A DNA stretch of 64,000 bases from an uncultured Planctomycetota bacterium. Its GTDB lineage: Bacteria; Planctomycetota; Planctomycetia; Isosphaerales; Isosphaeraceae. Position 1 is the first letter of the stretch. The number at the start of each line of letters is the position of its first letter. This document shows positions 10,951 through 60,975 of the stretch, in pieces. The notes beneath the pieces are model-generated. The model searched no databases. It was not told the origin of the DNA and saw only the letters and a program-made list of their open reading frames with translations. Both the position numbers and the translations under genes were made by a program. The DNA is taken from positions 480,001 to 544,000 of the forward strand of contig CAWJTV010000034.1 in NCBI GenBank assembly GCA_963845755.1. The letters run 5' to 3'.

Positions 10951-11007
10951 GTAGGTCAGGCTTTCCAGCCTGACTCTTCAGGCGCGTCAGGCTGGAAAGC
11001 CTGACCT
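10951..11007. repeat. REP-like palindromic doublet (GTAG family) between convergent genes
   Basis: GTAGGTCAGGCTTTCCAGCCTGAC...GTCAGGCTGGAAAGCCTGACCT. Confidence 0.75.
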
Positions 11008-11051
11008 CCTTTCTCGCCGGCGGAATACATCGAGTTCGCGAGGGAGGTATT

Positions 11052-40327: not shown

Positions 40328-40630
40328 GGCTGATCCTCCTTTCCTTCCCGACCGACCGGCTGCTCGATTTGCGATGTTAAACACTCGCTGGATAATCTAC
40401 CCCTCTCAACGCCAGATCGCCATGGTCGCGCGGGCTGTTCGAGCCGCGTTTACTGGAAGGCAATCCAATCAGAGAAATCGATTCAAGTACCCCAATCACT
40501 ACAAGCTTGATATACGGATTATTTTCTCCAGATTGCCGATGGGTTCGTTCGGTTCGTTTGCTGCATCTTGTCATTGAAGCGACCTCACACCGAACTCCAA
40601 TCGTTAAATTTTGCCGGATCGATACAATCG

Positions 40631-40782
40631 TGGCTTCGTTTGATCGATTTTCCGCGTCGGTTTCGTTCGCGGACCCTGTGGTTGACCGTGGTGTCTGGCT
40701 TCGTTTGATTGATTTCGGATGCGCGCGTCATCCTCTTGCATCAATCCATGCGATAGTCCCTGGCTTCGTTTTGATGATTTCG
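40631..40782. repeat. three degenerate ~22-bp direct repeats at exact 65-bp period
   Basis: TGGCTTCGTTT starts at 40631, 40696 and 40761, each followed by a GAT..GATTT(T)C-like tail. Confidence 0.65.
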
Positions 40783-41451
40783 CCATGCTGATCTCGCAGT
40801 CGTGATTTCCGGGTGTGGGCTGTCGATGAGGTGGGCGCGCACGATGACTTACAGATATTATGGGACACTTGAGCGTGCCTGGCCACGAATTCTGGAAGAA
40901 AAGTTGGCGGCGACCGGGTGTCGCCGAGGGCGAGTCGGGAAGATATACCTTTGAAGGTCAAGGGCCGCCGGCCGTGATGGCGGTATGGGAGGAGTTCCGC
41001 TCGAGGTGTGGGCTGGCCATCAGTGCAACGTCGAACCGGGCGGACAGCACGGCGAGCCGGTGGCCCAGGCATGGGCTCACGTCCTCGGCTCGCCATCTGA
41101 ACACCAGAGCAGGGGGAACGGCCGGCGGATCATGCCCTGCTGCGCCGATTATCACGCGGGTGATCTGCTCGCGGCCTTGGTCAGGTCCCGGGTGACCATC
41201 GGAAGCCGTAGAGAAGGCGCCCGCATCAGGGGTCTTCGTCCGCCGGAACAGGGAAGAGTGCAGAGGGGGTTCGGGGGAGAGGGGACGTGTCACGCGACAC
41301 CAAGTTGGATCGCGAAATCCCGACACCCGGTTTGATCGTACCTGCTCATCGGTGCGCGTTTATGGGTCGAAGGTGACAGTCGTTCAGGAGCGAAAAGGGC
41401 GGCAGCGTCAGAGCCGATCCAGCCCGCAGAGGGCCAGAGGCAACCCCTGTG

Positions 41452-41481
41452 GGTGCTTCGGTGTCGTCGGACGAATGGCAC
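41452..41481 (+). other. putative recombination core site S1
   Basis: GGTGCTTCGGT-GTCGTCGG-ACGAATGGCAC. Confidence 0.65.
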
Positions 41482-41695
41482 TAGCTTAAGCGTAACACTT
41501 TATGCCATTTGAGCTTAAGTGCGGATCTCCAGACATATTTTCAACGATTGTAGATATTCGCTTGTAATATTGATAGAGAGTTTAGCCTCAAATCAAGCCA
41601 CATGGACCCAACCTCATATCCTCCTGAATACTATTAATGGGCAAACCGTCGCGACACAACTCGTTTTCTGAAAACGAGTTACGCTTAAGCTAGTG
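41471..41695. repeat. non-coding linker L1 (233 bp including 44134-44141); right arm interrupted by intron copy 1
   Basis: terminal inverted repeat ACGAATGGCACTAGCTTAAGCGTAAC; AT-rich core homologous to L2. Confidence 0.8.
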
Positions 41696-44133
41696 ATGAG
41701 GTAGGCGGCCAGCCCCTTGATCTCAAGGGAATCCAACCGCCCCCTCCCGAACCGGACAGGCACGTTTTCGTGCATCCGGCTCTCCAGACACAGGATCTAC
41801 ATTTGTGTCACGGTCCAACCCGGTATGCCAGGTCCGCCAGTCGGAGGCCATCATATTCTCCTCGGTGGATCTTACGGTGGCACTCTCGGCAGACGGGCAC
41901 TTGCTTCCGGTTCTGGAGTCGCATCAGCCAGGCAAACCCACCGACAGGTTTGCCCTCCATCTTTCGGATGTGACGGACGTGGTGCATCTGCACCCCGACC
42001 GTTGTTTCGCAGATGATGCATGGGTGGTCCAGGCGGGACCTTGTCCGGAATCGGACGTGCATCTCCAGTGGGTCGGTTTGATCTCTTCCCGTTAGAAATG
42101 CCGTGGGGTTCCGGGTCCAGTCGGAGTTGGCTTTGAAGAAGGTGTTCCGTTCCTTCCCCTCGCCGTCTTTCCAGTTGAATTGCAGAGTGCGTCCGTGTTC
42201 GCAGAGGAGCTGCTTAACGGGCTTCTGCAACTTGTGGGCTAAGGTCTTCGCAAGTGACAAATGCAGGATGTACTGGATACGGCTCATGGAGGCGAAGTTG
42301 TCAGCAAACCTGTAGTAGTTCAACAGCCCCCAATTGGTGCTGTTGAACAGTTCGATGATGTGCTTCACCTCCAGGCAGACCCACGCTGTCTTGGATCGGG
42401 CGATGCCCTCACCGTCACAGAAGCCCTTCTGGTGAAGACGCTTGACCAGTTTCCTGATCGGCGCTCGCATCAGCGGGCTCCACCCCGTACACCGGCGCCG
42501 GTAGTGCCGCCGTTGGTTGTGGCAGTGGGTAACCTTGGGCTGTGGGTTGACGGCCCCCACCTGAAGCCGCGTCCCGAGAAAGAAGGCCTCCTCGGTCTTG
42601 GCGTGAGTGACGACCGTCTTTTCCTGGCTGAGTTGCAGTTTCAGCCTGTCCCATAGGAACGCCTGAATCTCGTCCTTGATCTGTTCGGCCAGGGACCTCG
42701 GCCCCGTGACGCCGACGATCCAATCGTCTGCATATCTGATGTATTTGACTCTGACGAAGCCAGGGTCAAACGTGTCCATCGACGGGAGAGATCGCATCTG
42801 TTTCGTCAAAGCGCGAATCTCCGGCGTCATGATCCCACCTGACCGTTTCAACGCTCGCTGCCTGCGATAGTTGATCCGGTGATACTCGGGGCTGTCCTTC
42901 CGCTTGCTGCCCTTCTCGTACTTCTGCTGTAGTCCCTCGACGAAGAGGTCGAGTTCGTGCAGGTAGATGTTGGCGAGGATAGGGCTGGCCACGCTCCCCT
43001 GCGGGGTCCCGATAAACGAGGCCCCCGGTTCCTTCCTCCATAGGTAGCCTGCCCGGAGTGCTTTCCAGATCAGGCCGATGAAGCGTTCGTCCGAGATCCT
43101 CTTCCGGATCAGGGAAACCAGGACGTGGTGATCGATCTCGTCGAAGCAGGATTTTATATCCCCTTCGATGATCCACGTCACACCAGACCACTTGGTCCTG
43201 AACTCATGCAGGGCCGTGTGAGTCCCTCGACCAGGCCGAAAACCATGGCTACAGTCGCTAAAGGTAGGCCCTTTCGGACTGTCGTAGATCGCTTCGAGGA
43301 TCACATGGATGACCTCTTGGACGATCTTGTCCCTTGGGGATGAGATGCCGAGAGGCCGCATCTTGCCATTTGCCTTGGGAATGTATTCCCGCCGCGAAGG
43401 CTTGAATTGGAAACCCTCGTCTCGCAGGGTCGCCACGATGTCGTCGATGGCATCCATGGAGAACCCATCGAGAGTCATCCCGTCGGTGCCAGGAGTCAAG
43501 TTCCCGGGAGCGGATTTGATTTTCTCATACGCGACGATGTAGAGATCCGTCTTGTAGAGGAGTCGATACAGATCCGCGTTGACCCAGTTGAGGTCCGTGT
43601 TGCACTTCCGCAGTGCTTCAAGCCTGAGTAGGGCTGAATGACTCATCCGAGTCACCCCGTTCTTGGTGAAGCCCTGTGTCCTGTCCCCCTTGGGCCGATG
43701 CCTACTACGGGGACTCTGTCGCCTTGGGCATTGCTGCCGTTAGGCGATCCCGTGGTTGTCGGTCAGGTCCGGTCCACGTTGAGGGCCTCCGTTCATCCCT
43801 TGCCCCTGCTCATTGCAGGGTGTGTCCTGCCGGAAGATCACGGAGGTGAATGGCATGCCCCCGTGAGACAGGAATCCGGGTTTCAGCGTCATTCCCGGCG
43901 GTGATCGAGCACACCCACTGGGACTGGAGTTCAAGCAATCCAGCCTTACCCATGCGTGGCCTAACTTGCGAACGTCTCTCGGCCCTTTGACGCTGGGCCT
44001 CACGTCGCTTCTTCCGCATGCTGTTGTCCCCTCGATCCTTTCGGTTGAAGGTCAGCGGAACGTTTGACCCGCCTTCTTCCAGCGGGGTCGGGGCACTCCC
44101 GACAAGACCAGACAAACCTTAGCCACGGCGCAC
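41696..44133 (-). mobile_element. group IIA (ML class, LtrB-like) intron, copy 1, 2,438 nt
   Basis: 5' GTGCG at 44133-44129; domain V/VI and terminal ...CCTACCTCAT at 41696; removal restores GAATGG|CACTAG. Confidence 0.93.
41808..43646 (-). CDS. ltrA: intron-encoded reverse transcriptase/maturase with HNH endonuclease (LtrA-like)
   Basis: RPLGI, GTPQGSVASPILANIYL, YIRYADD, C-terminal CIIC..HH..CRECH; ATG at 43646 (ORF track uses GTG 43655). Confidence 0.93.
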   Translation of the reverse strand: MSHSALLRLEALRKCNTDLNWVNADLYRLLYKTDLYIVAYEKIKSAPGNLTPGTDGMTLDGFSMDAIDDIVATLRDEGFQFKPSRREYIPKANGKMRPLGISSPRDKIVQEVIHVILEAIYDSPKGPTFSDCSHGFRPGRGTHTALHEFRTKWSGVTWIIEGDIKSCFDEIDHHVLVSLIRKRISDERFIGLIWKALRAGYLWRKEPGASFIGTPQGSVASPILANIYLHELDLFVEGLQQKYEKGSKRKDSPEYHRINYRRQRALKRSGGIMTPEIRALTKQMRSLPSMDTFDPGFVRVKYIRYADDWIVGVTGPRSLAEQIKDEIQAFLWDRLKLQLSQEKTVVTHAKTEEAFFLGTRLQVGAVNPQPKVTHCHNQRRHYRRRCTGWSPLMRAPIRKLVKRLHQKGFCDGEGIARSKTAWVCLEVKHIIELFNSTNWGLLNYYRFADNFASMSRIQYILHLSLAKTLAHKLQKPVKQLLCEHGRTLQFNWKDGEGKERNTFFKANSDWTRNPTAFLTGRDQTDPLEMHVRFRTRSRLDHPCIICETTVGVQMHHVRHIRKMEGKPVGGFAWLMRLQNRKQVPVCRECHRKIHRGEYDGLRLADLAYRVGP

Positions 44134-44159
44134 CCATTCGTCGATCACACCGAGGCAAG
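44134..44159 (-). other. putative recombination core site S2 (A-arm split by intron)
   Basis: (GTG|)CCATTCGT-CGATCAC-ACCGAGGCAAG. Confidence 0.6.
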
Positions 44160-44380
44160 CAAGCAGTAGAGGGATGACGATCTGCCTGGCTCCGCGCGGC
44201 GGTTGCGGCGCGGGGGCGTTCCGTTCACGATTGACCCGCCAGGTCTTCGGTCTCGCGTCCATCCTCGGATCCTCTCCTGTGGTAAGAAGAAGGATGACGA
44301 AGAGGCCGCCAGCCGGATACCCGGTCCTTCAATACCTGCAATTCGGTAGGATCAGGAGAATCGCAAGGGAGCCTCGCATC

Positions 44381-45163
44381 ATGAGCATCTTCGACCGATT
44401 CAAATTGACGGGAAAGCGTCTCTTCATCACGGGAGGTAGTCGCGGCTTGGGACGGGAGATGGCACTCGCGATCGCCGAGGCCGGCGCCGACGTGATCCTC
44501 GTTGGCCGCGACCCGGCAGGTTTGGAGAAGGCAGCCGGCGACATCCGCGCCCTGGGCCGCCAATGCTGGACCCTCGCGGCGGACGTCGGAAAGCCGGCCG
44601 AATGCGAAGAGGCGTGCCGGTTGGCTCTGGATCATCACGGCCCGATCGACATTCTGATCAACAACGTGGGCGGCCGGCACGAGAACATCCCCACGGAAGC
44701 GATGTCGCTCGACAAATGGCGCGAGCTGATCGACCTGAACCTCACCAGCTGCATGCAATGTACGAAATGGCTCGGCGCGGCGATGATCGAGCGCGGCGGG
44801 GGCGGGCGAATCATTAACATCGCTTCGATCAACGCGCTCGTGGCGGGGCGTGGCATCACGGGCCGGCACTACGAGACAGCGAAGGCGGCGATGCTTCAGT
44901 TCACCCGCGCGGTCGCGGCCGACTGGGCGGTGCACAAGATCACGGTAAACGCCATCCTGCCGGGCGGCTTCATGACAGAGGCGAACCAGCGCTGGTCCGA
45001 AATCCATCCGGAGGTGATCGAGCAGTTCCGCGCCAATATCCCGCTGGGCGATTTCGGCCAGCCGGAGGATCTTGGGCCGCTCGCGGTGTACCTGGCCAGC
45101 GACGCCTCGCGCTACATGACCGGGGCAGCCCTGGTGATCGACGGCGGGTACACGTTGTGGTAG
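44381..45163 (+). CDS. SDR family NAD(P)-dependent oxidoreductase (cargo 1)
   Basis: TGGSRGLG, DILINNVG, INIAS, YETAK (YxxxK), VIDGG. Confidence 0.92.
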   Translation: MSIFDRFKLTGKRLFITGGSRGLGREMALAIAEAGADVILVGRDPAGLEKAAGDIRALGRQCWTLAADVGKPAECEEACRLALDHHGPIDILINNVGGRHENIPTEAMSLDKWRELIDLNLTSCMQCTKWLGAAMIERGGGGRIINIASINALVAGRGITGRHYETAKAAMLQFTRAVAADWAVHKITVNAILPGGFMTEANQRWSEIHPEVIEQFRANIPLGDFGQPEDLGPLAVYLASDASRYMTGAALVIDGGYTLW

Positions 45164-45215
45164 GAAGACTGACGCGGGAATGTGATCACGCCAGTCTCCT
45201 TGTCGAGGACTTGAA

Positions 45216-46035
45216 ATGAACGGACCCAGAACGGTCAGATCGTTCGTGTCAAGTAGCCCGGAGTATCATCGGGCATTCCAAGCGTTCCTGGCCCACACTG
45301 ACCAGAAGGACAAGGCCAGGGAGTGGATAAGGCACGAGGTCGACGGGCTCGCGAATCGGTCGGTCATGATTGACGCGGGCGCCGGCAGCGGGCGGCTCAC
45401 TTCGTGGCTCACTCCGCTGTTCGGGACTGTGATCGCCATCGAACCGAACCCCTCCATGGAGTCGGAGCTTCGGATCGCTTGCCCAGACGCGGTGGTGATC
45501 GCCGCCACGATCGCCTCGGCCTCACCGCCGACGGCAGGGGACTTCGTGCTGTGCTCGCACGTGTTCTATCACATCCCCCGGTCGCAGTGGGAAGCGACCT
45601 TGCTGCACTTGATGGGCTGGCTAGCTCCCGGGGGCGTTCTCGCCGTCGCGTTGCAGAACCCCCGTGCTGACTGCATGCGCATGGTCAACCATTTCCTCGG
45701 GGGCCGCCTCGATCTGAGCGAGCTTTGCCCGATGGCGAACGCAGAGGATGGTGAGTATGAGGCACGGCTGGAGACCGTTCCTGCTCACATTCGCGCGCCC
45801 GACCTCGGGACAGCCTGCGAGATCGCCGAATTCTTCCTGAATGACCTGCCCATGCCCGCGCCACCGAGGTGGGAGGACCTGGAGCATTACGTTGAACGAG
45901 CATTTCAAGCAGGCCGAAGGTGGTTACCAGCTCTCGTGTCATCAAGACTTCTTACGAGTCTCCAGATCGATTGGATCGCCTCTATCGGCGATAAGAGCGG
46001 ACCGTCCGCACGGGGCGCGGCGGTCGTCCCCTTGA
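45216..46035 (+). CDS. class I SAM-dependent methyltransferase (cargo 1), frameshift near 45900
   Basis: MIDAGAGSG, IAIEPN, DFVLCSHVFYHI, LAPGG. Confidence 0.82.
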
Positions 46036-46199
46036 TCTGGGGGCGAGAGCTTCTGCGCCAAACGGTGCAGGGACTGGACCACCGTTCGGCTCGTCTCGGG
46101 AGGCCGACGGTTGATTGGCGGCTGGATGGACCGGACTATCTGGGTCTGGGACGCGACGCCGCTGCCGGAATAGCAGCGAGGGTGGGGACACTGTTCGCA

Positions 46200-46400
46200 G
46201 TCGTCCTCAATCGGCCGGCTCCGCCCGTGCAGACCTCACCTTCCTCGCGATGACGCGGCAGCGGTTCGGTCGGCCGCAAGAGGCCCGAGAGGGCCTCGAC
46301 CGCCTCCGGGAGAACCTGGAGGACCCAGCCCGCGCTAGATGGCGAGGCCCCGGGCTTCTTGCGCGAGGCCCGAGCGGTCTTTGCCGCTTCACGCCGTTGG
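46200..46400 (+). pseudogene. remnant resembling the TPR-like C-terminus of planctomycete Ser/Thr kinases
   Basis: DLTFLAMTRQRFGRPQEAREGLDRLRE; no intact start. Confidence 0.4.
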
Positions 46401-46481
46401 CCTGCGAGCCACGCTGCTGAACGATCAGCCCGGCGTGCCGCGTCGCCGTGATCTCGCCGCCGTGGAGCGCCTTCCTTTTGC

Positions 46482-46746
46482 GCGCGTCGGTCCGACGACA
46501 CGAATGGCACTAGCCTAAGCGTAAGTCGCTGATACTAAGTGACTTGTGTCTGTGACGGTCGGGGTTCTTGCAGAGAATACCCGACTATGATCATGATTTG
46601 ACGATGGGCTAGCCGGGAAACCAAGGCCTCAGATGGAGCCCCTAGGAATCCGGTCCATGGATCAAGGAAGTCCATTGTTTGCAAGTTCAATTTCTGCCAG
46701 AGGTTGCGCTTATGCTAGTGCCATTCGTGTCGTCGGACCGACGCGC
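46482..46746. repeat. linker L3 (46500-46728) with core sites S3 and S4 forming a 33-bp perfect inverted repeat
   Basis: GCGCGTCGGT-CCGACGAC-ACGAATGGCACTAGC at 46482-46514 and its exact reverse complement at 46714-46746. Confidence 0.85.
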
Positions 46747-46841
46747 AGAGAGCCGTTCCACAAGACGCCGGTGAATCCAGAACTAACCGCGTCCCTGTTC
46801 CCCTCCCTTGGATACAAATTCAAGAGGACTCGGTTTCACGC

Positions 46842-47389
46842 TCAAGCGAATCCCTTGTCTTTGAGCCACTTCTCAATCACAGATGGAAGGGTGGTGCCCG
46901 GGTTTCTCGTGTCGAAGGGCTTGTAGAGTTTGCCGTTCAGATCGGCTTGAAGGGTCTTGAGAGTCTTGTCCTTCAGCAGTAAGACCGGCTTGTTGAGGGC
47001 CATCATGTAGCCGACCTCTAGGCCGACATTGGGATTGAACTCCTCTTGCTCGATCCGATCGAAGATGGCGATGCCGAAGCCGCAGCCGTGCATGTAGGTC
47101 TTGATATTGGAGAAGGTGTCGTCGTCGTATTCCTTGTGATCGGCCCGCATGGCGGCAATTCCATGCTTTGCGGTCGTCTCCTGGATCACACGGACGATGT
47201 CACTGTGAGCGTCGGTCTCGGTGAACCGCATCATATGAAGGCGGCCTTGCGTGGGTCGGGATGCTCAGCCTGGAACGCCTGGAGGCTTTCTTGGATATCG
47301 GGCGGCAAAGATGGAAGGCTTGGCTTCGGCGGTAATGCTTTGCTTCTTCGTCCAGATGGGCGAGTCGAGACTGAACCTGGATCAGGCAT
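46842..47389 (-). CDS. nucleoside-deoxyribosyltransferase/TIR-like domain protein (cargo 2), frameshift near 47234; start uncertain
   Basis: AFI|MMRF, RAD, GIAIFD, NPNVGLEVGYMMALNKPVLLL, LQADL. Confidence 0.7.
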
Positions 47390-47565
47390 CTCAACGAGCG
47401 CAGCACTCGAATAGTTCGCCAGGCGCCGCCCCTTTCCTTCGTCCCACACGCATTCAAGATTGCTAAACATTGAGTCTACTTGCGCAGTATGGGTAAGCTG
47501 GCCCCCCCCTCAGACTACGCAGTCCGCTTGGAATATTAGCAATATCCCTCGGCAAAGACGAGGAA

Positions 47566-48660
47566 TCAGCTCGAGCCGAGTCCCTCATACTCGGGGGATA
47601 GCCGGTAACTCCGCGACTTCCTGGCCGGGTCAACCACGAGCACGAACCCGCCGCTCACCCATGAAGAGAGGATGTTCCGGGCCGTCCTCTGGGAGACGCC
47701 GAAGAGGCCCTCGACGTCGCGGCTGGTGATGACGACCGAGCGGCGGAAGAGCTCCAGGGCCCGGCGCCGGCGGGGGTCGAGGCGACGCAGCGCGGCCGAG
47801 TCATCCCTCATGCCCCGGTCGGCGGCCTCCCGGGCGCGGCGGCGGACGCTCTCGAAGCTGTCGGCCATGCCCGCGCAGAAGTATTCGACCCACGCCGTGA
47901 TGTCCGCCTCGGCACGGCCCTGATAGTAATTGTGCGACGGCCCGACCGCCAATGCCCGGTAGTAGGCCGACAGGTCTCTGGCGTAGTATTCTTCCAGCGA
48001 ATAGAGCCCCTTCAGGTCGTACCCGCCCCGGTGGAGGATCAGGGTCGTCAGGAGCCTCGCCGTGCGGCCGTTGCCGTCGTAGTAGGGGTGGATCGTGGCG
48101 AACTGGTAGTGGGCGATCCCGGCGCGGATCGGGCACGGGACGCCCTCGTGCTCGCTGCGCCGGAGCCAGTCGACGAGCTCCTCCATGAGCCGGGGGACAT
48201 CCGATGCCTCCGGGGGCATGTAGACGATCCGACGGCTGCCGGCGTCGCGGATCACGTTCTGCCCGCCCCGGTATGGGGTGGGCTTCTTCACCGCCTTGCC
48301 GCTGGCCATCACGAGGGCGTGAAGGGTTCGGACCTGGAGGTCCGTCACGTCCCCTCCCTGGGCCGCGAATCGTTCGAGCCGCTCGATCGCCGCGTAGTAG
48401 CCGAGGACCTCGGCCTCGTCTCGCTCCCGGCCCGGGAAATGCCTCCCCTGCTCGATCAACGAGGAGACCTCCTCCCGAGCGAGGCGGTTGCCCTCGATCA
48501 TCGTGGAGTAGTGGGTGGAGAAGAGCCGCGCGGTCTCGCGGAGGCCGGCGAGCACGGAGGACGTGATCGGCAGGTCCTCCACGGCCTGCCGGGCCGCCTC
48601 GATCCTCATGAGGTGGGTCGCGGTGCGGGGCGTGATCCGGTAGTTGGGCTCGAACGGCAT
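47566..48660 (-). CDS. Fic family protein with C-terminal HTH (cargo 2)
   Basis: STMIEGN; HPYYDGNGRTAR Fic motif. Confidence 0.92.
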   Translation of the reverse strand: MPFEPNYRITPRTATHLMRIEAARQAVEDLPITSSVLAGLRETARLFSTHYSTMIEGNRLAREEVSSLIEQGRHFPGRERDEAEVLGYYAAIERLERFAAQGGDVTDLQVRTLHALVMASGKAVKKPTPYRGGQNVIRDAGSRRIVYMPPEASDVPRLMEELVDWLRRSEHEGVPCPIRAGIAHYQFATIHPYYDGNGRTARLLTTLILHRGGYDLKGLYSLEEYYARDLSAYYRALAVGPSHNYYQGRAEADITAWVEYFCAGMADSFESVRRRAREAADRGMRDDSAALRRLDPRRRRALELFRRSVVITSRDVEGLFGVSQRTARNILSSWVSGGFVLVVDPARKSRSYRLSPEYEGLGSS

Positions 48661-48979
48661 TCGGCGGCACTTTCTCGGTCGGTTTCCTTGCCGTTATTGT
48701 GCCGTTAAAGTGCCGATAAATCAAGCGATCGGTGTGGGTCGAGGTAGGCACTCTGCTCACAACCTGGGACGCGTATCTGGATTGCGGCGTCGCCGGCGAG
48801 GCGGCGGGGGGTGAACGCCGACATTGCGATTAGTCCGACGCTTGGGCGGTCTAGACAAGCGCATGTCCCGCCGGGCCGGCTCGATGGCCGCCCCGCCCCG
48901 GGCCCGGCCCGGCCGATCGCCGGACGGAGCCGGTTCGTCCAACAGACGGGGCGGAGTCGGGCCGGAGCCGGCGACGTTG

Positions 48980-49005
48980 CTTGCTTCGGTGGGATCGACG
49001 AATGG
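48980..49005 (+). other. putative recombination core site S5 (A-arm split by intron)
   Basis: CTTGCTTCGGT-GGGATCG-ACGAATGG(|CAC). Confidence 0.65.
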
Positions 49006-51443
49006 GTGCGCCGTGGCTAAGGTTTGTCTGGTCTTGTCGGGAGTGCCCCGACCCCGCTGGAAGAAGGCGGGTCAAACGTTCCGCTGACCTTCAACCGAAA
49101 GGATCGAGGGGACAACAGCATGCGGAAGAAGCGACGTGAGGCCCAGCGTCAAAGGGCCGAGAGACGTTCGCAAGTTAGGCCACGCATGGGTAAGGCTGGA
49201 TTGCTTGAACTCCAGTCCCAGTGGGTGTGCCCGATCACCGCCGGGAATGACGCTGAAACCCGGATTCCTGTCTCACGGGGGCATGCCATTCACCTCCGTG
49301 ATCTTCCGGCAGGACACACCCTGCAATGAGCAGGGGCAAGGGATGAACGGAGGCCCTCAACGTGGACCGGACCTGACCGACAACCACGGGATCGCCTAAC
49401 GGCAGCAATGCCCAAGGCGACAGAGTCCCCGTAGTAGGCATCGGCCCAAGGGGGACAGGACACAGGGCTTCACCAAGAAAGGGGTGACTCGGATGAGTCA
49501 TTCAGCCCTACTCAGGCTTGAAGCACTGCGGAAGTGCAACACGGACCTCAACTGGGTCAACGCGGATCTGTATCGACTCCTCTACAAGACGGATCTCTAC
49601 ATCGTCGCGTATGAGAAAATCAAATCCGCTCCCGGGAACTTGACTCCTGGCACCGACGGGATGACTCTCGATGGGTTCTCCATGGATGCCATCGACGACA
49701 TCGTGGCGACCCTGCGAGACGAGGGTTTCCAATTCAAGCCTTCGCGGCGGGAATACATTCCCAAGGCAAATGGCAAGATGCGGCCTCTCGGCATCTCATC
49801 CCCAAGGGACAAGATCGTCCAAGAGGTCATCCATGTGATCCTCGAAGCGATCTACGACAGTCCGAAAGGGCCTACCTTTAGCGACTGTAGCCATGGTTTT
49901 CGGCCTGGTCGAGGGACTCACACGGCCCTGCATGAGTTCAGGACCAAGTGGTCTGGTGTGACGTGGATCATCGAAGGGGATATAAAATCCTGCTTCGACG
50001 AGATCGATCACCACGTCCTGGTTTCCCTGATCCGGAAGAGGATCTCGGACGAACGCTTCATCGGCCTGATCTGGAAAGCACTCCGGGCAGGCTACCTATG
50101 GAGGAAGGAACCGGGGGCCTCGTTTATCGGGACCCCGCAGGGGAGCGTGGCCAGCCCTATCCTCGCCAACATCTACCTGCACGAACTCGACCTCTTCGTC
50201 GAGGGACTACAGCAGAAGTACGAGAAGGGCAGCAAGCGGAAGGACAGCCCCGAGTATCACCGGATCAACTATCGCAGGCAGCGAGCGTTGAAACGGTCAG
50301 GTGGGATCATGACGCCGGAGATTCGCGCTTTGACGAAACAGATGCGATCTCTCCCGTCGATGGACACGTTTGACCCTGGCTTCGTCAGAGTCAAATACAT
50401 CAGATATGCAGACGATTGGATCGTCGGCGTCACGGGGCCGAGGTCCCTGGCCGAACAGATCAAGGACGAGATTCAGGCGTTCCTATGGGACAGGCTGAAA
50501 CTGCAACTCAGCCAGGAAAAGACGGTCGTCACTCACGCCAAGACCGAGGAGGCCTTCTTTCTCGGGACGCGGCTTCAGGTGGGGGCCGTCAACCCACAGC
50601 CCAAGGTTACCCACTGCCACAACCAACGGCGGCACTACCGGCGCCGGTGTACGGGGTGGAGCCCGCTGATGCGAGCGCCGATCAGGAAACTGGTCAAGCG
50701 TCTTCACCAGAAGGGCTTCTGTGACGGTGAGGGCATCGCCCGATCCAAGACAGCGTGGGTCTGCCTGGAGGTGAAGCACATCATCGAACTGTTCAACAGC
50801 ACCAATTGGGGGCTGTTGAACTACTACAGGTTTGCTGACAACTTCGCCTCCATGAGCCGTATCCAGTACATCCTGCATTTGTCACTTGCGAAGACCTTAG
50901 CCCACAAGTTGCAGAAGCCCGTTAAGCAGCTCCTCTGCGAACACGGACGCACTCTGCAATTCAACTGGAAAGACGGCGAGGGGAAGGAACGGAACACCTT
51001 CTTCAAAGCCAACTCCGACTGGACCCGGAACCCCACGGCATTTCTAACGGGAAGAGATCAAACCGACCCACTGGAGATGCACGTCCGATTCCGGACAAGG
51101 TCCCGCCTGGACCACCCATGCATCATCTGCGAAACAACGGTCGGGGTGCAGATGCACCACGTCCGTCACATCCGAAAGATGGAGGGCAAACCTGTCGGTG
51201 GGTTTGCCTGGCTGATGCGACTCCAGAACCGGAAGCAAGTGCCCGTCTGCCGAGAGTGCCACCGTAAGATCCACCGAGGAGAATATGATGGCCTCCGACT
51301 GGCGGACCTGGCATACCGGGTTGGACCGTGACACAAATGTAGATCCTGTGTCTGGAGAGCCGGATGCACGAAAACGTGCCTGTCCGGTTCGGGAGGGGGC
51401 GGTTGGATTCCCTTGAGATCAAGGGGCTGGCCGCCTACCTCAT
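49006..51443 (+). mobile_element. group IIA (ML class, LtrB-like) intron, copy 2, 2,438 nt
   Basis: GTGCG at 49006; EBS2 near 49231-49238; delta/EBS1 TGCCATTC 49284-49291; domain V 51357-51390 (GAGCCGGATGCACGAAAACGTGCCTGTCCGGTTC); ends CCTACCTCAT at 51443. Confidence 0.93.
49493..51331 (+). CDS. ltrA: intron-encoded reverse transcriptase/maturase with HNH endonuclease (LtrA-like); translation identical to copy 1
   Basis: same motifs as copy 1; AAGGGGTG ribosome-binding site before ATG 49493. Confidence 0.93.
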   Translation: MSHSALLRLEALRKCNTDLNWVNADLYRLLYKTDLYIVAYEKIKSAPGNLTPGTDGMTLDGFSMDAIDDIVATLRDEGFQFKPSRREYIPKANGKMRPLGISSPRDKIVQEVIHVILEAIYDSPKGPTFSDCSHGFRPGRGTHTALHEFRTKWSGVTWIIEGDIKSCFDEIDHHVLVSLIRKRISDERFIGLIWKALRAGYLWRKEPGASFIGTPQGSVASPILANIYLHELDLFVEGLQQKYEKGSKRKDSPEYHRINYRRQRALKRSGGIMTPEIRALTKQMRSLPSMDTFDPGFVRVKYIRYADDWIVGVTGPRSLAEQIKDEIQAFLWDRLKLQLSQEKTVVTHAKTEEAFFLGTRLQVGAVNPQPKVTHCHNQRRHYRRRCTGWSPLMRAPIRKLVKRLHQKGFCDGEGIARSKTAWVCLEVKHIIELFNSTNWGLLNYYRFADNFASMSRIQYILHLSLAKTLAHKLQKPVKQLLCEHGRTLQFNWKDGEGKERNTFFKANSDWTRNPTAFLTGRDQTDPLEMHVRFRTRSRLDHPCIICETTVGVQMHHVRHIRKMEGKPVGGFAWLMRLQNRKQVPVCRECHRKIHRGEYDGLRLADLAYRVGP

Positions 51444-51668
51444 CACTAGCTTAAGCGTAACAGCTTATGCCATTGGAGTTTAGGCACGGGTCGTCAGGCA
51501 TATTTTCAGCGATTGCAAATATTCGCTTGTAATATTGATAGAGGATTTGGCCTCAATTCAAGCCACATGGACCCAGCCTTATATCCTCCTGAGTACTACT
51601 GATGGGATAAACATTGCGACGCAACTCATTTTCTAAAAAAGAGTTACGCTTAAGCTAGTGCCATTCGT
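51444..51668. repeat. non-coding linker L2 (233 bp including 48998-49005); left arm interrupted by intron copy 2
   Basis: same terminal inverted repeat and length as L1, with a diverged but alignable core. Confidence 0.8.
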
Positions 51669-51686
51669 GGGATCGACCGAAGCACC
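51658..51686 (-). other. putative recombination core site S6
   Basis: GTGCCATTCGT-GGGATCG-ACCGAAGCACC. Confidence 0.65.
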
Positions 51687-51928
51687 TTCGAAACATGCCT
51701 TGTGGCTGGACGCCACTCTGTGCGTCTGTCACCTTCGACTCGTGAACGGGCACCGATGAAGAGGTTCGATCAAACCGGGTGTCGGGATTTCGCGATCCAA
51801 CTTGGTGTCGCGTGACAGGACGCGTCTCCTCCGAAACTCATCACGAGCGCGGGCGAAGCCCGCCACCGCTGGCGTTGGCGCCTAGAGCGATTCACGCTTG
51901 GGTGGCTGACGGTCGGGGGACAGAGCCC

Positions 51929-53325
51929 CATACGAAACTGGTTAAGCCGCAATCCTTGGTGCGAACAGCAGTTGTCGCGTACTGGGGCGTTTCTTCCGTC
52001 GGCCACGCCGGGGCAAACGACTCAAGCGGACTCGCAGTTTCTCCAACACCCGCCGCAACCGCGCTGGGTCGCTCAGCGCCGCGGCGATTTGCAATGCCAG
52101 CCGCTTCACCCGCCGAGCCGCCCGGACCAGGCTGATCCCACACAGGGGCCCTCCGCGCAGCAGCGTCCCCCAGTGCTGCACCAGCATCCCCAACAGCTTG
52201 GCATACCTCTCGCACAACACCCGCTGGCCCCGCCGACCCCGCGTCCGGTCCACACCCCCTCCCGATTTCCACGCCTTATACAACAACTCCACCTGCCAGC
52301 GGACACGATAAAGCACGCAGATTTCTTCAATTGTCAACGTGCCCGCCGGCAAATCGGTGATCAGCACCGTCCCCTGGCACATCACGCGCTGGCGATCACT
52401 CAGCGTCTTCCCCTTCTTCCGCAGCTCCTTTCGCAGCCGACGCAATCGGATCTCGGCCACCTCCCGGGGCACCCGCAGGGCCACCAACCGACAGCCCAAG
52501 GTCGCCTTGGTCCCCAGGACGACCGTAGTGTCGATCCGACCCTCCGTTTGCCGATCCAACCACGCGCTGATATTGACCCCACCCGGCTCACCGGCTCGCA
52601 CTTTCAACTGCGCCGGGACGCGGCTGATAAAGTGAATCCCCTTCTGCTGATCGGCGGCCAGTCGTTCCAGGTCGAAAAAGCCCAGGTCGCACAACCGCAG
52701 GCTGTTGGCAGGTAAGGGCGCCAGCTCCTCGGCCAGGGTTCGCTCAGAATCGCGCGCCGGTGCCGGTGGCTGAATCTCCAAGCGGCCGGTGGTCACATCC
52801 CACCGCGTCAAGAGCTTCCATCCCGCTTGACCGCCTTGGGGATCAGAGCCACCACAGCCGGGGAAGGATCCGGCCAATTCGGCCGGCAACCCGACGATGG
52901 TGACGTCCTCGACGGAAACGGTCGCGAAGCGGCGCAACAGCGGAATCATCTCGGGCCGGGCCGCGAACAGCAGGTTCAACGCCTTCTCGAGCACCCGACG
53001 CAAACAGTCCGCGGCGCGGGCGTTGAAGCGTTCGTTGAAAGCCGCCTCGCTGATGTCGAGGTCTTCAATGATCTCCTCAATGGTGGCGTCGGGATTCTCC
53101 AGCCAATGAAAGACCAGGGCCTGGACGAATCGGGACCCGGTGAGCTTGCGCTGGCGCCGAATCATGCCGGAATCCTTGGCAGCCTCATCGGCGTCGGTGG
53201 TGAAGAGGGCTTGCAAGGCATCAGCCAGTTGATCGATCGTGATGGTCATCCGGTACTCCTCCGGTGCGGAAATACTGATCAAATGTATTGTACCAGAGGA
53301 GTTACTTCTTAACCAGTTTCTCATG
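51929..53325 (-). mobile_element. IS4-family insertion sequence (~1.4 kb)
   Basis: terminal inverted repeats CATACGAAACTGGTTAAG / CATGAGAAACTGGTTAAG (16 of 18 match). Confidence 0.85.
51942..53249 (-). CDS. IS4 family transposase
   Basis: RRQRKL, DLGFFD, YRVRWQVELLYKAWKS (YREK motif). Confidence 0.9.
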   Translation of the reverse strand: MTITIDQLADALQALFTTDADEAAKDSGMIRRQRKLTGSRFVQALVFHWLENPDATIEEIIEDLDISEAAFNERFNARAADCLRRVLEKALNLLFAARPEMIPLLRRFATVSVEDVTIVGLPAELAGSFPGCGGSDPQGGQAGWKLLTRWDVTTGRLEIQPPAPARDSERTLAEELAPLPANSLRLCDLGFFDLERLAADQQKGIHFISRVPAQLKVRAGEPGGVNISAWLDRQTEGRIDTTVVLGTKATLGCRLVALRVPREVAEIRLRRLRKELRKKGKTLSDRQRVMCQGTVLITDLPAGTLTIEEICVLYRVRWQVELLYKAWKSGGGVDRTRGRRGQRVLCERYAKLLGMLVQHWGTLLRGGPLCGISLVRAARRVKRLALQIAAALSDPARLRRVLEKLRVRLSRLPRRGRRKKRPSTRQLLFAPRIAA

Positions 53326-53383: not shown

Positions 53384-54765
53384 TGTCACCCGACAGTAGG
53401 TTTTGCCGCGAATCCCGACAAAAAGGTTTTGCCGCCTCGTGGCGGGGGGTAGTCTGTGATGGTCCGATCCTGCCAACTCCTGCGAGGGTCACTATGCCCG
53501 CTCCACTCCCGCCGACAACCCGGCGCCTCATCTTGCTACGATCCCGTCGCGGCCAGACCGCGGCGGCCATCGCGGACGCCCTGCATCTCTGCCCCCGCAC
53601 GGTCCGGCACCTGCTCCAGCGGGCTCGCGACCCGGCGAGCCCTCAGGGGACCGCTTATCGGCCCGGTCCGGGGCGGCCCGCCGACGACCACCCGCTCCGA
53701 GCCCAGGCCCTGGCCCTGCGACAGCAGCATCCGACCTGGGGAGCGGGCTACATCCGCGTCCGCCTGGCCACCGAGGCCGACCCGGCGACGGTGCCTAGCG
53801 AGCGCGCACGTTGCGGCGCTGGTTCCGCCGCCAGCGGCACCCGCCTGCGGCGGGGGGACGGCGGTCGCCGTCGGCCGCCGACCGTGCCATCGCCCCGCAT
53901 GACATCTGGCAGAGGGACGCCGCGGAGCAACTCCGCACGGCCGACGGCCAGGGCGCTGCTGGCTGCGGCTGGTGGATGAATATACGGGGGCCTTCCTGGG
54001 CACCACGGTTTTCCCCCCACTACTACTGGGCCCACGTCCCCGAGGCCGAGGTGCAGCGGCACTTGCACCGCGCCTTCGAGCGGTGGGGGCTGCCGCGCCG
54101 CATGCGGGTCGATAACGGCAAGCCGTGGGGGTCCTGGAGCGACCTGCCCCCCGCGCTGGCGTTGTGGCTGATCGGCCTGGGGGTCGGCGTGATCTGGAAC
54201 GACCCGCGGCGGCCGCAACAGAACGGCGTGGTGGAGCGGTCGCAGGGGACGGCCAAGCGGTGGGCGGAGCCGCACGCCTGCGGCAACCCGGCGGAGCTGC
54301 AGGCCCGCCTGGACGCCGACGACCGGTTGCAGCGGGAGCGGTATCCCGTCGCCGGGGGACACAGCCGTTGGGAGCTGTTCCCGGGTCTGGCGCACAGCGG
54401 CCGCGCCTACCGCGAGGCGGACGAGGCCGGCGCGTGGTGCCGGGGGCGGGTGCGCGACCACCTAGCGGAGTGGGCCGTGCCGCGCCGGGTGGACAGCCAG
54501 GGAAAGGTGTCGATCTATAACAGGAATATCTATGTAGGAGTGTTATATGCGGGCCGGGACGTCTGGGTCCAGTTCGACCCGGGGCACGGCGAGTGGCTGA
54601 TCAACGACGGCGGGGGCCAGCAGCTGCGGGCCCGGCCGGCCCCCGAGATCGACGCGGAGTCGATCCGCGGGTTGCGATTGTCGGGACGGAAGTAGGGACC
54701 GCCGGGTGTCCATGCGGCAAAACCTTTATGTCGGGATTCGCGGCAAAACCTACTGTCGGGTGACA
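53384..54765 (+). mobile_element. IS481-like insertion sequence (1,382 bp)
   Basis: ~52-bp terminal inverted repeats TGTCACCCGACAGTAGGTTTTGCCGCGAATCCCGACA...; GCCCC duplication at 53379-53383 and 54766-54770. Confidence 0.88.
53494..54695 (+). CDS. HTH + integrase-core (DDE) transposase, frameshifted
   Basis: N-terminal HTH, HPTWGA, WQRD, RVDNGKPWG, PQQNGVVERS. Confidence 0.8.
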
Positions 54766-60468: not shown

Positions 60469-60799
60469 AACGCAATGATTGGAAGCAAGAGTCACCGGCG
60501 TGGCACGGGTTCCTAAGCAACTCCGCAGAAATAACTTGACAAAAGTCCCACGATCTCGCGGAAAACTGGCTCTATCTCAGGCAGACGCCAGCTCGAAAGG
60601 CGCGGCGATGTCAAATCAATTCTGCCGAGTTGCTTAGTCGATGGGGCTTTCTTTACCCGGTTAGTGCGGATGGGGAGCCGGAAGGCTTCTCGCATAGCCC
60701 AGACTTGCGTCCCGAGGGACGCCGGAACCCCGATGACTCTCGAAACGTGCGAGCGCTCGCGCGGTAATGAAGGTCCACCGTGTCCTGAGGGGCAGATTG

Positions 60800-60975
60800 T
60801 TGCGCGCGTCAGTCGGATCGACGAATGACAGTAGACTAGGCGCAAGTGTTTTCTGATAAATGACTTGGACCTGTACAGGGCCGGTCGTTTAGGGGAAAAA
60901 TCTTAGTCTGTTCACATTATGATTAATTGGCTGGCCGGGAAACATAGGGCTCCAGATGGAGACCCCGAGAATCAA
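60800..60975 (+). repeat. degenerate core site S7 and partial L3-type linker
   Basis: TTGCGCGCGTCAGT-CGGATCG-ACGAATGACAGTAG; shares GACTTG, GCCGGGAAAC and CAGATGGAG with L3; no right arm found. Confidence 0.7.

Follow-up and report, generated by a model that had tools for sequence, protein, structure and literature searches.

The IS481 family carries its transposase in a single reading frame, and the mechanism of pdif modules is likewise taken here as general background. Transporter IS (tIS) and non-autonomous elements such as MITEs are defined in the relevant sections of PMC9330008. The Tn5053/Tn402 family, as treated in part of PMC7765201, is characterized by a tniABQ-res-tniR module and 25-bp repeats. 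In the main description given in bioRxiv 10.1101/2022.12.17.520857, members of the IS1202 family have a single ORF of 400–500 aa, and the ISAba32 subgroup abuts xrs sites. The element and sites reported below were not found described in the literature searched, which was mostly open-access text outside ISfinder and supplements.

The window, that is, the whole 64,000-nt stretch analysed, contains a 10.5-kb unit (Table 1) that probably derives from a cargo-carrying IS481-like insertion sequence by loss of the transposase. Its structure is layered, with mobile elements of four kinds nested together. An earlier note on this DNA had claimed perfect 51-bp inverted ends, a 5-bp target duplication and no transposase. 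All three are confirmed. By direct sequence comparison, nt 41288–41338 are the exact reverse complement of nt 51767–51817, base 52 being the first mismatch (91.6% identity when compared over 95 bp), and GGACG is present on both flanks. Five transposase queries, namely the cognate IS481-like protein in two halves, two IS4 proteins and one IS66 protein, found no match in the unit by tblastn at E 0.01. A Pfam scan of 22 ORF references that lie within the unit or overlap it, which took in one of the two identical RT ORFs, detected only RT/maturase/HNH, SDR, methyltransferase, TIR/NDT-like and Fic domains. Both end motifs, held to be tandem, do occur as CGACAC motifs at repeat positions 8–25 and 34–51, but they are spaced 26 bp apart and do not abut. 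The looser similarity to about 90 bp is present as well; what had been missed is a second, inner, IS66-type set of ends. With these inner ends, later introns and modular cargo, the unit did not arise as one piece.

Table 1. Features of the 10.5-kb unit, with positions in the window.
Feature	Position	Strand	Details or basis
5-bp target duplication, left copy, GGACG	41283..41287		Target is loop of a G/C-rich hairpin repeat; single-copy targets and fold
51-bp terminal repeat of IS481-like IS, right end (IRR)	41288..41338	+	Two CGACAC-containing motifs; identical 51 bp flank transposase in L032, L033, L034, L041
13-bp tail of IS right end	41339..41351	+	5 bp plus one copy of inner unit's 8-bp duplication
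Inner cargo unit, IS66-type ends	41352..51753		A end left, B end right
Outer half of palindromic site A	41455..41472	+	8-bp arm, 8-bp core; 41461-41472 is left copy of 12-bp duplication
Composite of two IS4-family MITEs around block 1	41473..46726		5254 bp, in site A, 12-bp duplication
MITE 1	41473..44139		229 bp: 41473-41695 plus 44134-44139, split by left intron
Group II intron, left copy	41696..44133	-	2438 nt; RT-maturase-HNH ORF 41808-43655 (615 aa)
Cargo block 1	44140..46501		B half-site 44140-44156 to A half-site 46484-46501; reversed relative to unit
Short-chain dehydrogenase/reductase gene	44381..45163	+	Pfam adh_short_C2 E 1.5e-55; ORF 44174-45163; start by inspection
Class I methyltransferase gene	45216..45960	+	Pfam; end approximate
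MITE 2	46502..46726		225 bp; ~58% identical to MITEs 1 and 3 (global alignment), same ends
Cargo block 2	46727..48999		Inner half of site A 46727-46744 to B half-site 48983-48999
TIR-like / nucleoside deoxyribosyltransferase-like gene, 3' part	46842..47234	-	Weak Pfam matches below cut-off
Fic-domain gene	47566..48660	-	Pfam
MITE 3	49000..51666		49000-49005 plus 51444-51666, in site B, split by right intron
Group II intron, right copy	49006..51443	+	ORF 49484-51331; EBS2 near 49231-49237, EBS1 49286-49291
Outer half of palindromic site B	51667..51683	+	7-bp core, 8-bp arm
Second copy of 13-bp right-end tail	51754..51766	-	Occupies place of relatives' 1.3-kb transposase arm
51-bp terminal repeat	51767..51817	-	Sequence
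5-bp target duplication, right copy	51818..51822		Sequence

Autonomous copies of the end sequence, for which the note had suggested a search, do exist. The same 51-bp repeat accompanies a two-frame transposase in L032, L033, L034 and L041, and with 1–2 changes in L035, L038 and L046; the ends are of the DDE type, and the reading of the unit as a transposase-less cargo carrier with autonomous relatives is borne out. Bare relatives without load measure 1384–1389 bp (in genomes G021, G263 and G702). The right-end tail is uninterrupted in L045 and contains a duplicated 8-mer in the loaded copies L032, L033, L038, L041 and L044. Most relatives with both ends have a 5-bp duplication, as seen in L046, L047, L049, L215, the neighbouring IS and C10/C45, while it is missing or imperfect in L033, L034, L041 (4 bp), L048 (4/5), L214, L217 and L218. 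The two frames of the transposase are joined at a conserved T4C6 run in all 22 spanning copies (one with T3C7) among 23 examined. When scored separately, both halves have the IS481 profile NF033577 as their best NCBIfam family, with 41–76 bits against a cut-off of 224; NF033594 (IS1202 family) scores weaker, and both are far below the curated cut-offs. Thus IS481 is the closest of the four groups named earlier, although the presence of two reading frames leads us to file the family as IS481-like and not as a member of IS481. The outer ends begin with 5′-TGT, a feature of IS481 according to the family description in bioRxiv 10.1101/2022.12.17.520857. The relatives depart from IS1202 in having two frames instead of the long single ORF and in being flanked by palindromic repeats; the table of 166 IS1202 members belonging to that preprint may bear on this assignment. 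They depart from Tn5053/Tn402 in having one IS-type gene and 51-bp repeats. By this comparison both outer ends are the right-hand repeat of an IS481-like IS; in the present unit a second right end has taken the place of the transposase arm. The 88% complete assembly G000 yielded no intact cognate transposase, only a truncated copy on C45, and the five copies of a related IS in it are 41–55% identical, with 31 of 51 repeat bases matched in a gapped alignment. Decay in place is seen in the truncated C45 and L046 and in the one-ended C29 and L212.

Inside the outer repeats lies the second set of ends, 27-bp imperfect inverted repeats at nt 41352–41378 and 51727–51753, recognized as IS66-type by comparison of copies. 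The features of single-ORF (ISBst12-type) IS66 members are general background and were checked on the copies in G000 itself, where 8-bp duplications are present in 4 of 5, one of them after a one-base shift of the left boundary. The inner ends begin with GTA, and 9–11 of their first 12 bases match the G000 IS66 copies carrying PF03050; the B end shares 11/12 first bases with the single-ORF copies. Around the inner unit, within the IS, 6–7 bases of an 8-bp duplication are matched. A/B-ended units lacking IS481 ends have such a duplication in 4 of 7 tested (8/8, 7/8, 7/8 and 6/8) and a missing or imperfect one in the other three, and it was not found for most decayed pairs in G000. A first test around 27 Pfam matches, with a window and thresholds unsuited to the task, detected no IS66-type ends. 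Ten IS66 proteins gave no match inside any A/B unit tested, and no autonomous partner with A/B ends was found; the inner unit is evidently non-autonomous.

The next layer consists of IS4-family MITEs and group II introns. Exact 12-mer ends are preceded by a half-site in 20 of 20 cases. The ends fit the -AATR signature, and the duplications of 11–12 bp fall within the 10–13-bp range of the IS4 subgroup of IS4. MITE 3 is 85% identical to MITE 1 and is flanked by an 11-bp duplication (nt 48989–48999 and 51667–51677). A partner IS4 of 1830 bp with the same ends and a 12-bp duplication resides in G000 (C47:276274-278103); its transposase matches NF033592 with 212.7 bits (cut-off 115), and the copy appears frameshifted. 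Insertion of the MITEs at CTAG in a 24-bp palindrome was considered and dropped, as the duplications are the 11–12 bp outside the ends. Block 1 was carried into site A as a MITE-bounded composite: the 12-bp duplication agrees 12/12 at the outer ends (its right copy lying within nt 46727–46744) and only 3–4/12 at the inner junctions. A 12-bp match between two A cores can come about without a common insertion, as on C47, and the evidence for the composite therefore includes, in addition, the lack of a match at the inner junctions and the reversal of the block.

Two group II introns, which differ at 2 positions (99.9% identity) and which the note had passed over, account for 4.9 kb of the 10.5 kb. 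Rfam RF00029 recognizes the intron with 62 bits (cut-off 40); RVT_1, Intron_maturas2 and an AI2M-like HNH in its ORF exceed the Pfam cut-offs, and TIGR04416 gives 252 bits, below its cut-off of 300. Read directly off the sequence, EBS1, in a predicted loop, pairs with IBS1 in 6/6 positions, EBS2 with IBS2 in 7/7 (left copy) or 5/7 (right copy), and δ-δ′ is a G-C pair. Immediately before each of the 13 intron 5′ ends stands a half-site joined to the first 6 bases of an IS4 end; in 11 cases the core is a B core. For the left site, the public run X3 contains an intron-free allele in which nt 41695 is joined to 44134. Half of the interior is thus intron DNA that arrived later.

What remains is the cargo. 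Block 1 is 96% identical over 2356 bp to a stretch of G714:C6, where both sites are intact. Its methyltransferase gene has an apparent frameshift near nt 45900, with the listed ORF extending to nt 46253. In block 2 the 3′ part of the TIR-like/NDT-like gene is out of frame with its 5′ part, and the Fic-domain gene has 92–97% identical copies in different surroundings in six other genomes. Relatives in soil planctomycetes carry at least five different full loads between the same two sites; eleven cargo stretches fall into seven groups, with five known over more than 5 kb. Sites A and B belong to a class of palindromes present 101 times in G000 and 0 times in a shuffle. Whole sites were used since a loose-pattern scan for half-sites was noisy (468 against 160 in the shuffle). 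In a sample with many loci chosen because they hold a site, and after identical contexts (29 of 221 sites) were dropped, which lowers the count for both sides, flank families switched partner at the site in 19/20 cases upstream and 16/17 downstream (35/37 in total). A control position 400 bp away gave 1 one-sided and 7 two-sided pairs. Families were counted instead of pairs because the commonest shared downstream flank, a promoter-like segment of 210 bp that ends in GTT ahead of various genes, inflates pair counts. By these flanks, by the co-orientation of neighbouring sites (79 of 82) and by the recurrence of block 1 between intact sites, sites A and B are breakpoints, and the exchange of cargo may proceed by recombination at them.

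Tyrosine recombinases show no clear adjacency to sites (7 of 34 loci within 7 kb, 1 within 1 kb). A small serine recombinase is a lead and not a result: of the 7 loci at ≥85% identity, 6 lie no farther than 360 bp from a site, and true sites are absent from all 36 more distant loci, but the best homologue in G000 (79%) has none, the site-rich G699 has no match at threshold, and matches in G714 and G001 reach only about 50%. An origin of the sites from REP/RAYT was rejected, as 0 of 10 Y1 transposase loci, compared by eye, adjoin a site. A PF04986 search for IS91-type elements gave no match, with its control likewise silent. Enrichment of kinases near sites is weak (15/281 within 3 kb against 8.7 expected). 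Unlike an integron or CALIN, the unit has short palindromes lacking attC end boxes as its cargo borders, and it contains no integrase.

From these layers the following history can be proposed. Into a 1.39-kb IS with 51-bp TGT ends and 5-bp duplications, which inserts in palindromic repeats, a unit with IS66-type ends entered between the stop codon and the right end with an 8-bp duplication; copies of both stages are seen. Sites A and B lie close to opposite ends of this unit, and the intervening DNA was exchanged repeatedly, as comparison of the relatives shows, so that the family carries different loads. Recombination at the sites, helped by IS4 composites, may have driven this exchange. MITEs of the IS4 subgroup entered the site cores, as their duplications document, two of them bringing block 1 into site A. 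The group IIA intron, given the observed pairing, would home to the point where a site core meets a MITE end. Finally, a second copy of the right end may have displaced the left end and transposase here; the simplest route would be template switching, since the inverted repeats form two pairs, one nested in the other. The two-right-end unit would now depend on a transposase in trans.

That this two-right-end unit was moved in trans at least once is slightly favoured by us. The tails differ at 3 of 13 bases and the 51-bp repeats and the 5-bp duplication at none, a contrast with a chance of about 0.007 by simple arithmetic if changes were evenly spread. Somewhat less probable, yet to be taken seriously, is that the same anatomy was inserted with its transposase still present and lost it in place, the two-right-end form being a relic that never moved. 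No second two-right-end copy was found in 249 loci or G000, which also lacks an intact cognate transposase, and decay in place affects other copies, as described for C45, L046, C29 and L212. All four X3 contigs there have the ancestral letters at nt 41345 and 41354, and contig 17 has the same left flank, which would fit a change in place after insertion, with the contig unreliable across the 51-bp repeat. Loss in place sits poorly with the contrast between tails and repeats and with a derived G at base 3 of the inner repeat common to both ends; this G implies that the copied end came from one like the unit's own left end and then had time to diverge. That the unit is instead an assembly artefact, whether folded back or wrongly joined at the identical introns or 51-bp repeats, is very improbable. 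The assembly has frameshifts in several genes and two almost identical 2.4-kb introns, and the metagenome contigs L033 and L034, with one flank on opposite ends, are probably misjoined through the 51-bp repeat. Against this, every internal layer has its own duplication, the ends diverge past base 51 into A and B sequences both seen in relatives, and the two flanks, put together, restore a known repeat in which the 5-mer occurs exactly once. The empty site with a single GGACG, which the note had asked for, exists in sister copies of the target: an intact one in G015:C141 (88% over 101 bp spanning the junction) and diverged ones in G000:C39, G000:C41 and G714:C3. The orthologous empty site was not found; homologues of the upstream gene are present in 4 of 5 genomes searched, where the matches stop about 850 bp or more short of the junction, which leaves the sister copies of the target repeat as the only empty sites. 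Contig 17 of X3 spans the left junction with 3 letters different, covering nt 41187–41357 and so reaching from 101 bases beyond the left end to 70 within it. Of 20 public runs with shares of 0.04–0.11, none of them the source, four were compared, their uncovered parts being uninformative; among the matches listed, 32 of 421 pieces, none crosses the right junction or the whole unit. With the single-5-mer targets and the spanned left junction, the fold-back that the note had feared does not hold.

As to the sites, a bolder reading can be offered only tentatively: A and B would be recombination sites that do not match each other and that serve a cassette system, as yet undescribed, in large-genome Isosphaeraceae, a mobile IntI-less analogue of integrons which swaps multi-gene blocks, often an ECF sigma factor with a Ser/Thr kinase, and helps inflate the genomes. 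The small serine recombinase, whose closest clade lies between B and A sites, could be its enzyme. If so, A and B at opposite transposon ends would form a natural platform for cassette exchange. It is also possible, if doubtful, that the sites are passive repeats into which IS4 inserts and moves composites, to be lost later by slippage between the 11–12-bp duplications so that a clean site is restored. The composite of this window and a second IS4-ended unit (4.9 kb, 11-bp duplication, from nt 60823) would be products of such a process, no recombinase is tied to the sites, and since there are just two types of core, a site would often be regained by precise loss. However, the composite here is reversed, yet 79 of 82 neighbouring intact sites are co-oriented. 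IS4 ends are absent from most sites, and passive repeats leave the spread of the sites and their conservation across 14 genera unexplained.

A transposase-less cargo element is by itself ordinary. Of interest is that an IS is here combined with two fixed exchange sites, which gives a transposon shell with a changing load; the logic is that of the success of class 1 integrons on Tn402, with unrelated parts. It offers a concrete and testable route of gene gain in giant soil planctomycete genomes, and the two sites, empty and filled, are defined substrates for hunting a new recombinase. Also obtained are an IS4 that is target-specific and has known duplications, and an intron whose target arises through the insertion of another element.

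Compared with known systems, the unit resembles the tIS, as outlined in PMC9330008, in having passenger genes inside IS inverted repeats and needing a transposase in trans; unlike a tIS its load is not fixed but swapped at two sites, these lie inside the ends of a second element, and both outer ends are right ends. It shares with class 1 integrons on defective Tn402/Tn5053, as portrayed in part of PMC7765201, a cassette platform in transposon ends, 5-bp duplications, lost transposition genes with enzymes in trans, and several nested elements. However, it has no tniABQ, intI or, at its borders, attI/attC (judged by the attC end boxes), its repeats are of 51 and not 25 bp, its targets are palindromic repeats and not res sites, and its blocks of 1–10 kb lie between two site types, unlike integron cassettes. 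With IS481 (NF033577) and IS1202, in the portions of bioRxiv 10.1101/2022.12.17.520857 devoted to them, the outer IS and its autonomous relatives have in common the TGT ends, the 1.39-kb size and a transposase with HTH and integrase core, and with the ISAba32 subgroup the 5-bp duplications, passenger genes occurring in some family members; two frames and repeat targets stand against the single frame and xrs sites of IS1202. GTA ends and 8-bp duplications are those of single-ORF IS66 members, whereas A/B units are 4–16 kb of cargo without an IS66 gene in any tested. The IS4 layer agrees with the IS4 subgroup, as covered in part of PMC2266710, in its -AATR ends, duplication range and strong target-arm specificity, and differs in consisting mostly of 225–230-bp MITEs, in targeting a cassette site and in a duplication length that tracks core length. 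Like group IIA introns such as Ll.LtrB, in the features set out in PMC4424553, the intron has a GUGCG start, an AU end, EBS/IBS and δ-δ′ pairings and an RT-maturase-endonuclease protein, and is housed in other mobile DNA; unlike Ll.LtrB, its target is made by the insertion of another element, IBS1 being the IS4 end and IBS2 lying in the duplicated site core. Finally, the gene blocks between short two-arm sites that are also IS targets recall the pdif modules of Acinetobacter, as mentioned in the IS1202 preprint, but the sequence is not dif-like, the cores are of 7 and 8 bp, and the sites are co-oriented in arrays.

The perfect 51-bp inverted ends that the earlier note described for the unit are confirmed, and their looser similarity, estimated there at about 90 bp, extends to 95 bp at 91.6% identity. 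GGACG is present on both sides. The claimed lack of a transposase also holds: tblastn with five transposase queries gives no match in the unit, and the Pfam content is only RT-maturase-HNH, SDR, methyltransferase, a TIR/NDT-like fragment and Fic. The two flanks, rejoined, make up a hairpin and align with intact repeats that contain the 5-mer once; the best match, in another genome (G015:C141), has 88% identity along 101 bp spanning the junction. The left junction is spanned by one contig of the public sequencing run X3, the assembly of the source genome G000, from a planctomycete most likely of the family Isosphaeraceae, is 14.3 Mb and 88% complete, and an assembly artefact is a highly improbable origin for the unit.

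Coordinates of the unit, its parts and related features (window positions unless a contig, C, of G000 or a locus, L, in genomes or metagenomes is given)
Feature	Position	Remark
Unit	41283..51822	
Right-end tail, 13 bp	41339..41351; 51754..51766	
Cargo block 1	44140..46501	SDR, methyltransferase genes
Cargo block 2	46727..48999	TIR/NDT-like fragment, Fic gene
Fic gene region	47557-48750	
Related IS481-like IS	53384-54765	1382 bp, 52-bp ends, 5-bp duplication GCCCC
L033 left flank	L033:1-48	likeness to T arm of tRNA gene
IS4-family transposase gene	51942-53324	NF033592, 168 bits; directly right of unit
Second IS4-ended unit	60823 to C34:545756 (past window)	4934 bp, in B site, 11-bp duplication
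206-bp MITE	C22:135111-135316; C34:682743-682948	11-bp duplication at C22
Multi-copy element with IS66 gene	C21:74807-79500 and six further places	>4.7 kb, >99% identical
Serine recombinase clade, 186 aa	L140:4214-4771; L144:7269-7826; L145; L161-L164; L178	
Compound sites	C19:407545-407607; C19:410473; C39:359428; C39:361409; C13:29386	B + A ~16 bp apart, or B every 43 bp
210-235-bp segment after site A	C39:198420-198660; L082; L083; L135; L137; L139; L141	
Further copies of the intron	C11:965048-967501; C36:46509-49021; C45:4627-5424	two split by ~2.5-kb inserts in RT gene, one without most of its ORF
Hairpin repeat family	842-899; 10951-11012	
65-bp-period copies, three	40628-40782	directly left of unit
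125-bp element	60513-60637	29-bp inverted ends

The 51-bp repeat occurs five times in G000: twice in the unit and once each in C10, C45 and C29, the last solitary. The C10 and C45 repeats appear to be opposite termini of a single ~12-kb element. They have a common 5-bp duplication, the rejoined target has 86 blast hits that extend over the junction, and a kinase-TPR gene exits one contig and continues in the other, with an overlap of only 84%. The initial 147 codons of a transposase come after the repeat in C45. Autonomous copies do exist, the repeat flanking a whole transposase gene at six loci in other genomes and metagenomes (L032, L033, L034, L035, L038 and L041). The IS481 assignment stands in part: NF033577 is the best-scoring family for both transposase halves, with scores far under the cut-off, and the outer element is IS481-like and not filed as an IS481 member. 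Its transposase gene is divided into two frames, joined at a T4C6 run; this holds for each of the 22 copies, out of 23 examined, that extend across the run, and makes a programmed frameshift there likely. The related IS481-like IS has the same run; all five of its G000 copies lie at the same position in one palindromic repeat, the repeat that the C10/C45 element also targets.

Bare relatives measure 1384-1389 bp, and copies loaded with an inner cargo unit read left end, transposase, B end, cargo, A end, right end. In the window unit the right-end tail stands on both sides, 13 bp taking the place of the 1.3-kb transposase arm; the switch point falls within the initial four bases of the inner repeat, at which the two ends of the unit have a derived G in common. 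Template switching between two nested inverted-repeat pairs would account for this replacement, and for the loss of the arm, in one step. The tails have changed at 3 of 13 positions and the 56 bases of repeat and duplication at none, and this tips the balance slightly towards movement of the unit in trans, without a transposase of its own. Against such movement stand the lack of a second two-right-end copy, the lack of an intact partner in G000, and an X3 contig with ancestral letters.

At locus L045 the sequence ahead of the right end is uninterrupted, and in loaded copies 8 bp of this sequence are duplicated around an inner unit whose ends start with GTA. IS66 elements carry such ends. Without IS481 repeats, A/B ends give 32 profile hits in G000 (overlaps counted), and in relatives they bound units of 4-16 kb; four of seven tested have 8-bp duplications (8/8, 7/8, 7/8 and 6/8). 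The single-ORF IS66 copies of G000 make 8-bp duplications and share 9-11 of their 12 initial bases with the A/B ends. No IS66 gene was found inside any A/B unit examined.

A palindrome lies ~105 bp inward of the A end and another ~70 bp inward of the B end, with 8-bp arms (GCKTCGGT and its complement) around a core of 8 bp in A and 7 bp in B. G000 holds 101 such sites, whole or interrupted, and a shuffle none. Site A (at most one mismatch) is found in 29 of 120 family genomes, mostly large ones, and in none of 400 others sampled across the phylum, where G000 is the sole family member. Removal of identical contexts left 192 distinct sites of 221 intact ones for a flank comparison. Of 20 families that share the upstream flank, 19 have different partners across the site, as do 16 of 17 that share the downstream flank; at controls 400 bp off the sites, sharing was two-sided in seven cases and one-sided in a single case. 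Adjacent sites at most 15 kb apart have the same orientation in 79/82 cases.

Likeness among the loaded copies ends ~7 bp inside the sites. Eleven cargo stretches fall into seven groups (the unit in the window; C10/C45 and L041; C29, L044 and L032; L046; L033 and L031; two short stretches). The five full loads are mutually unrelated, though not every load differs, and three contain an ECF sigma factor with a Ser/Thr kinase. Block 1 has 96% identity along 2356 bp with a block of genome G714 that is flanked by intact sites of B and A type, within a row of more sites. Block 2 did not turn up in one piece, and its genes are found apart from one another. Six genomes of a different genus have the Fic gene region at 92-97% identity, with borders that are alike but not identical; this region may have its own route of movement.

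We infer that cargo would be exchanged by an enzyme acting on sites A and B. The further reading, that the two sites are a naturally occurring platform for cassette exchange carried by a transposon, is possible but rather doubtful. An equally doubtful rival route is that cargo changes through IS4 composites followed by precise loss. None of the recombinase candidates examined could be tied to the sites; a clade of small serine recombinases, encoded between B and A sites, is no more than a lead. The gene of this clade is followed after 79-94 bp (five loci) or 273 bp (one) by a B-type or hybrid site, and at times an A site lies ~280 bp ahead. Compound sites are possibly junctions of stacked cassettes. 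The 210-235-bp segment has a TTGACA promoter-like box and GTT at its end, is followed by different small genes, and resembles what a classical integron has as attI and promoter, here enclosed within a block bounded by sites.

Three IS4-family MITEs of 225-229 bp with ends GAATGGCACTAG are located in site cores, and C47 carries an 1830-bp IS4 with the same ends. These ends and the 11-12-bp duplications agree with subgroup IS4 of the IS4 family, for which PMC2266710 gives ends in -AATR, repeats of 10-13 bp and marked specificity for target arms. All 20 exact MITE/IS4 ends in G000 come after a half-site. MITE 3 has an 11-bp duplication of its own; MITEs 1 and 2 have no individual duplication (3-4/12), their outer ends match at 12/12, and block 1, which they enclose, has a reversed orientation. 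Since A cores are all alike, the 12-bp match by itself does not prove a composite. An inversion between the two MITEs is rejected because it would give a B half, and an A half is present. MITE 1, block 1 and MITE 2 form a composite insertion into site A. By eye, the second IS4-ended unit contains a porin-like gene and an IS630-like fragment; the 206-bp MITE, with ends one base off, lies outside A/B sites.

The two introns of the unit have 2 differences in 2437 aligned bases. In G000 each of the 13 intron 5′ ends is preceded by a half-site plus the six initial bases of the IS4 end, 11 of them at B cores, and all seven 3′ ends are followed by the remainder of the IS4 end. EBS1 pairs with the six IS4-end bases, EBS2 with the site core, and the base preceding EBS1 with the first 3′-exon base, the same pattern as that of group IIA introns in PMC4424553. 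In run X3 the left site lacks the intron (joint 41695/44134), which fixes the left intron's borders and shows its late arrival.

The unit comprises five layers in an established order, with autonomous relatives and different loads bordered by sites. Every part is in or near a known class; for the combination, with a two-site exchange platform inside IS ends, no description was found in the literature searched. The unit belongs to neither the Tn402 family nor the integrons. It works like a transporter IS (PMC9330008), and is alike in logic to the class 1 integron on a defective Tn402 (PMC7765201).
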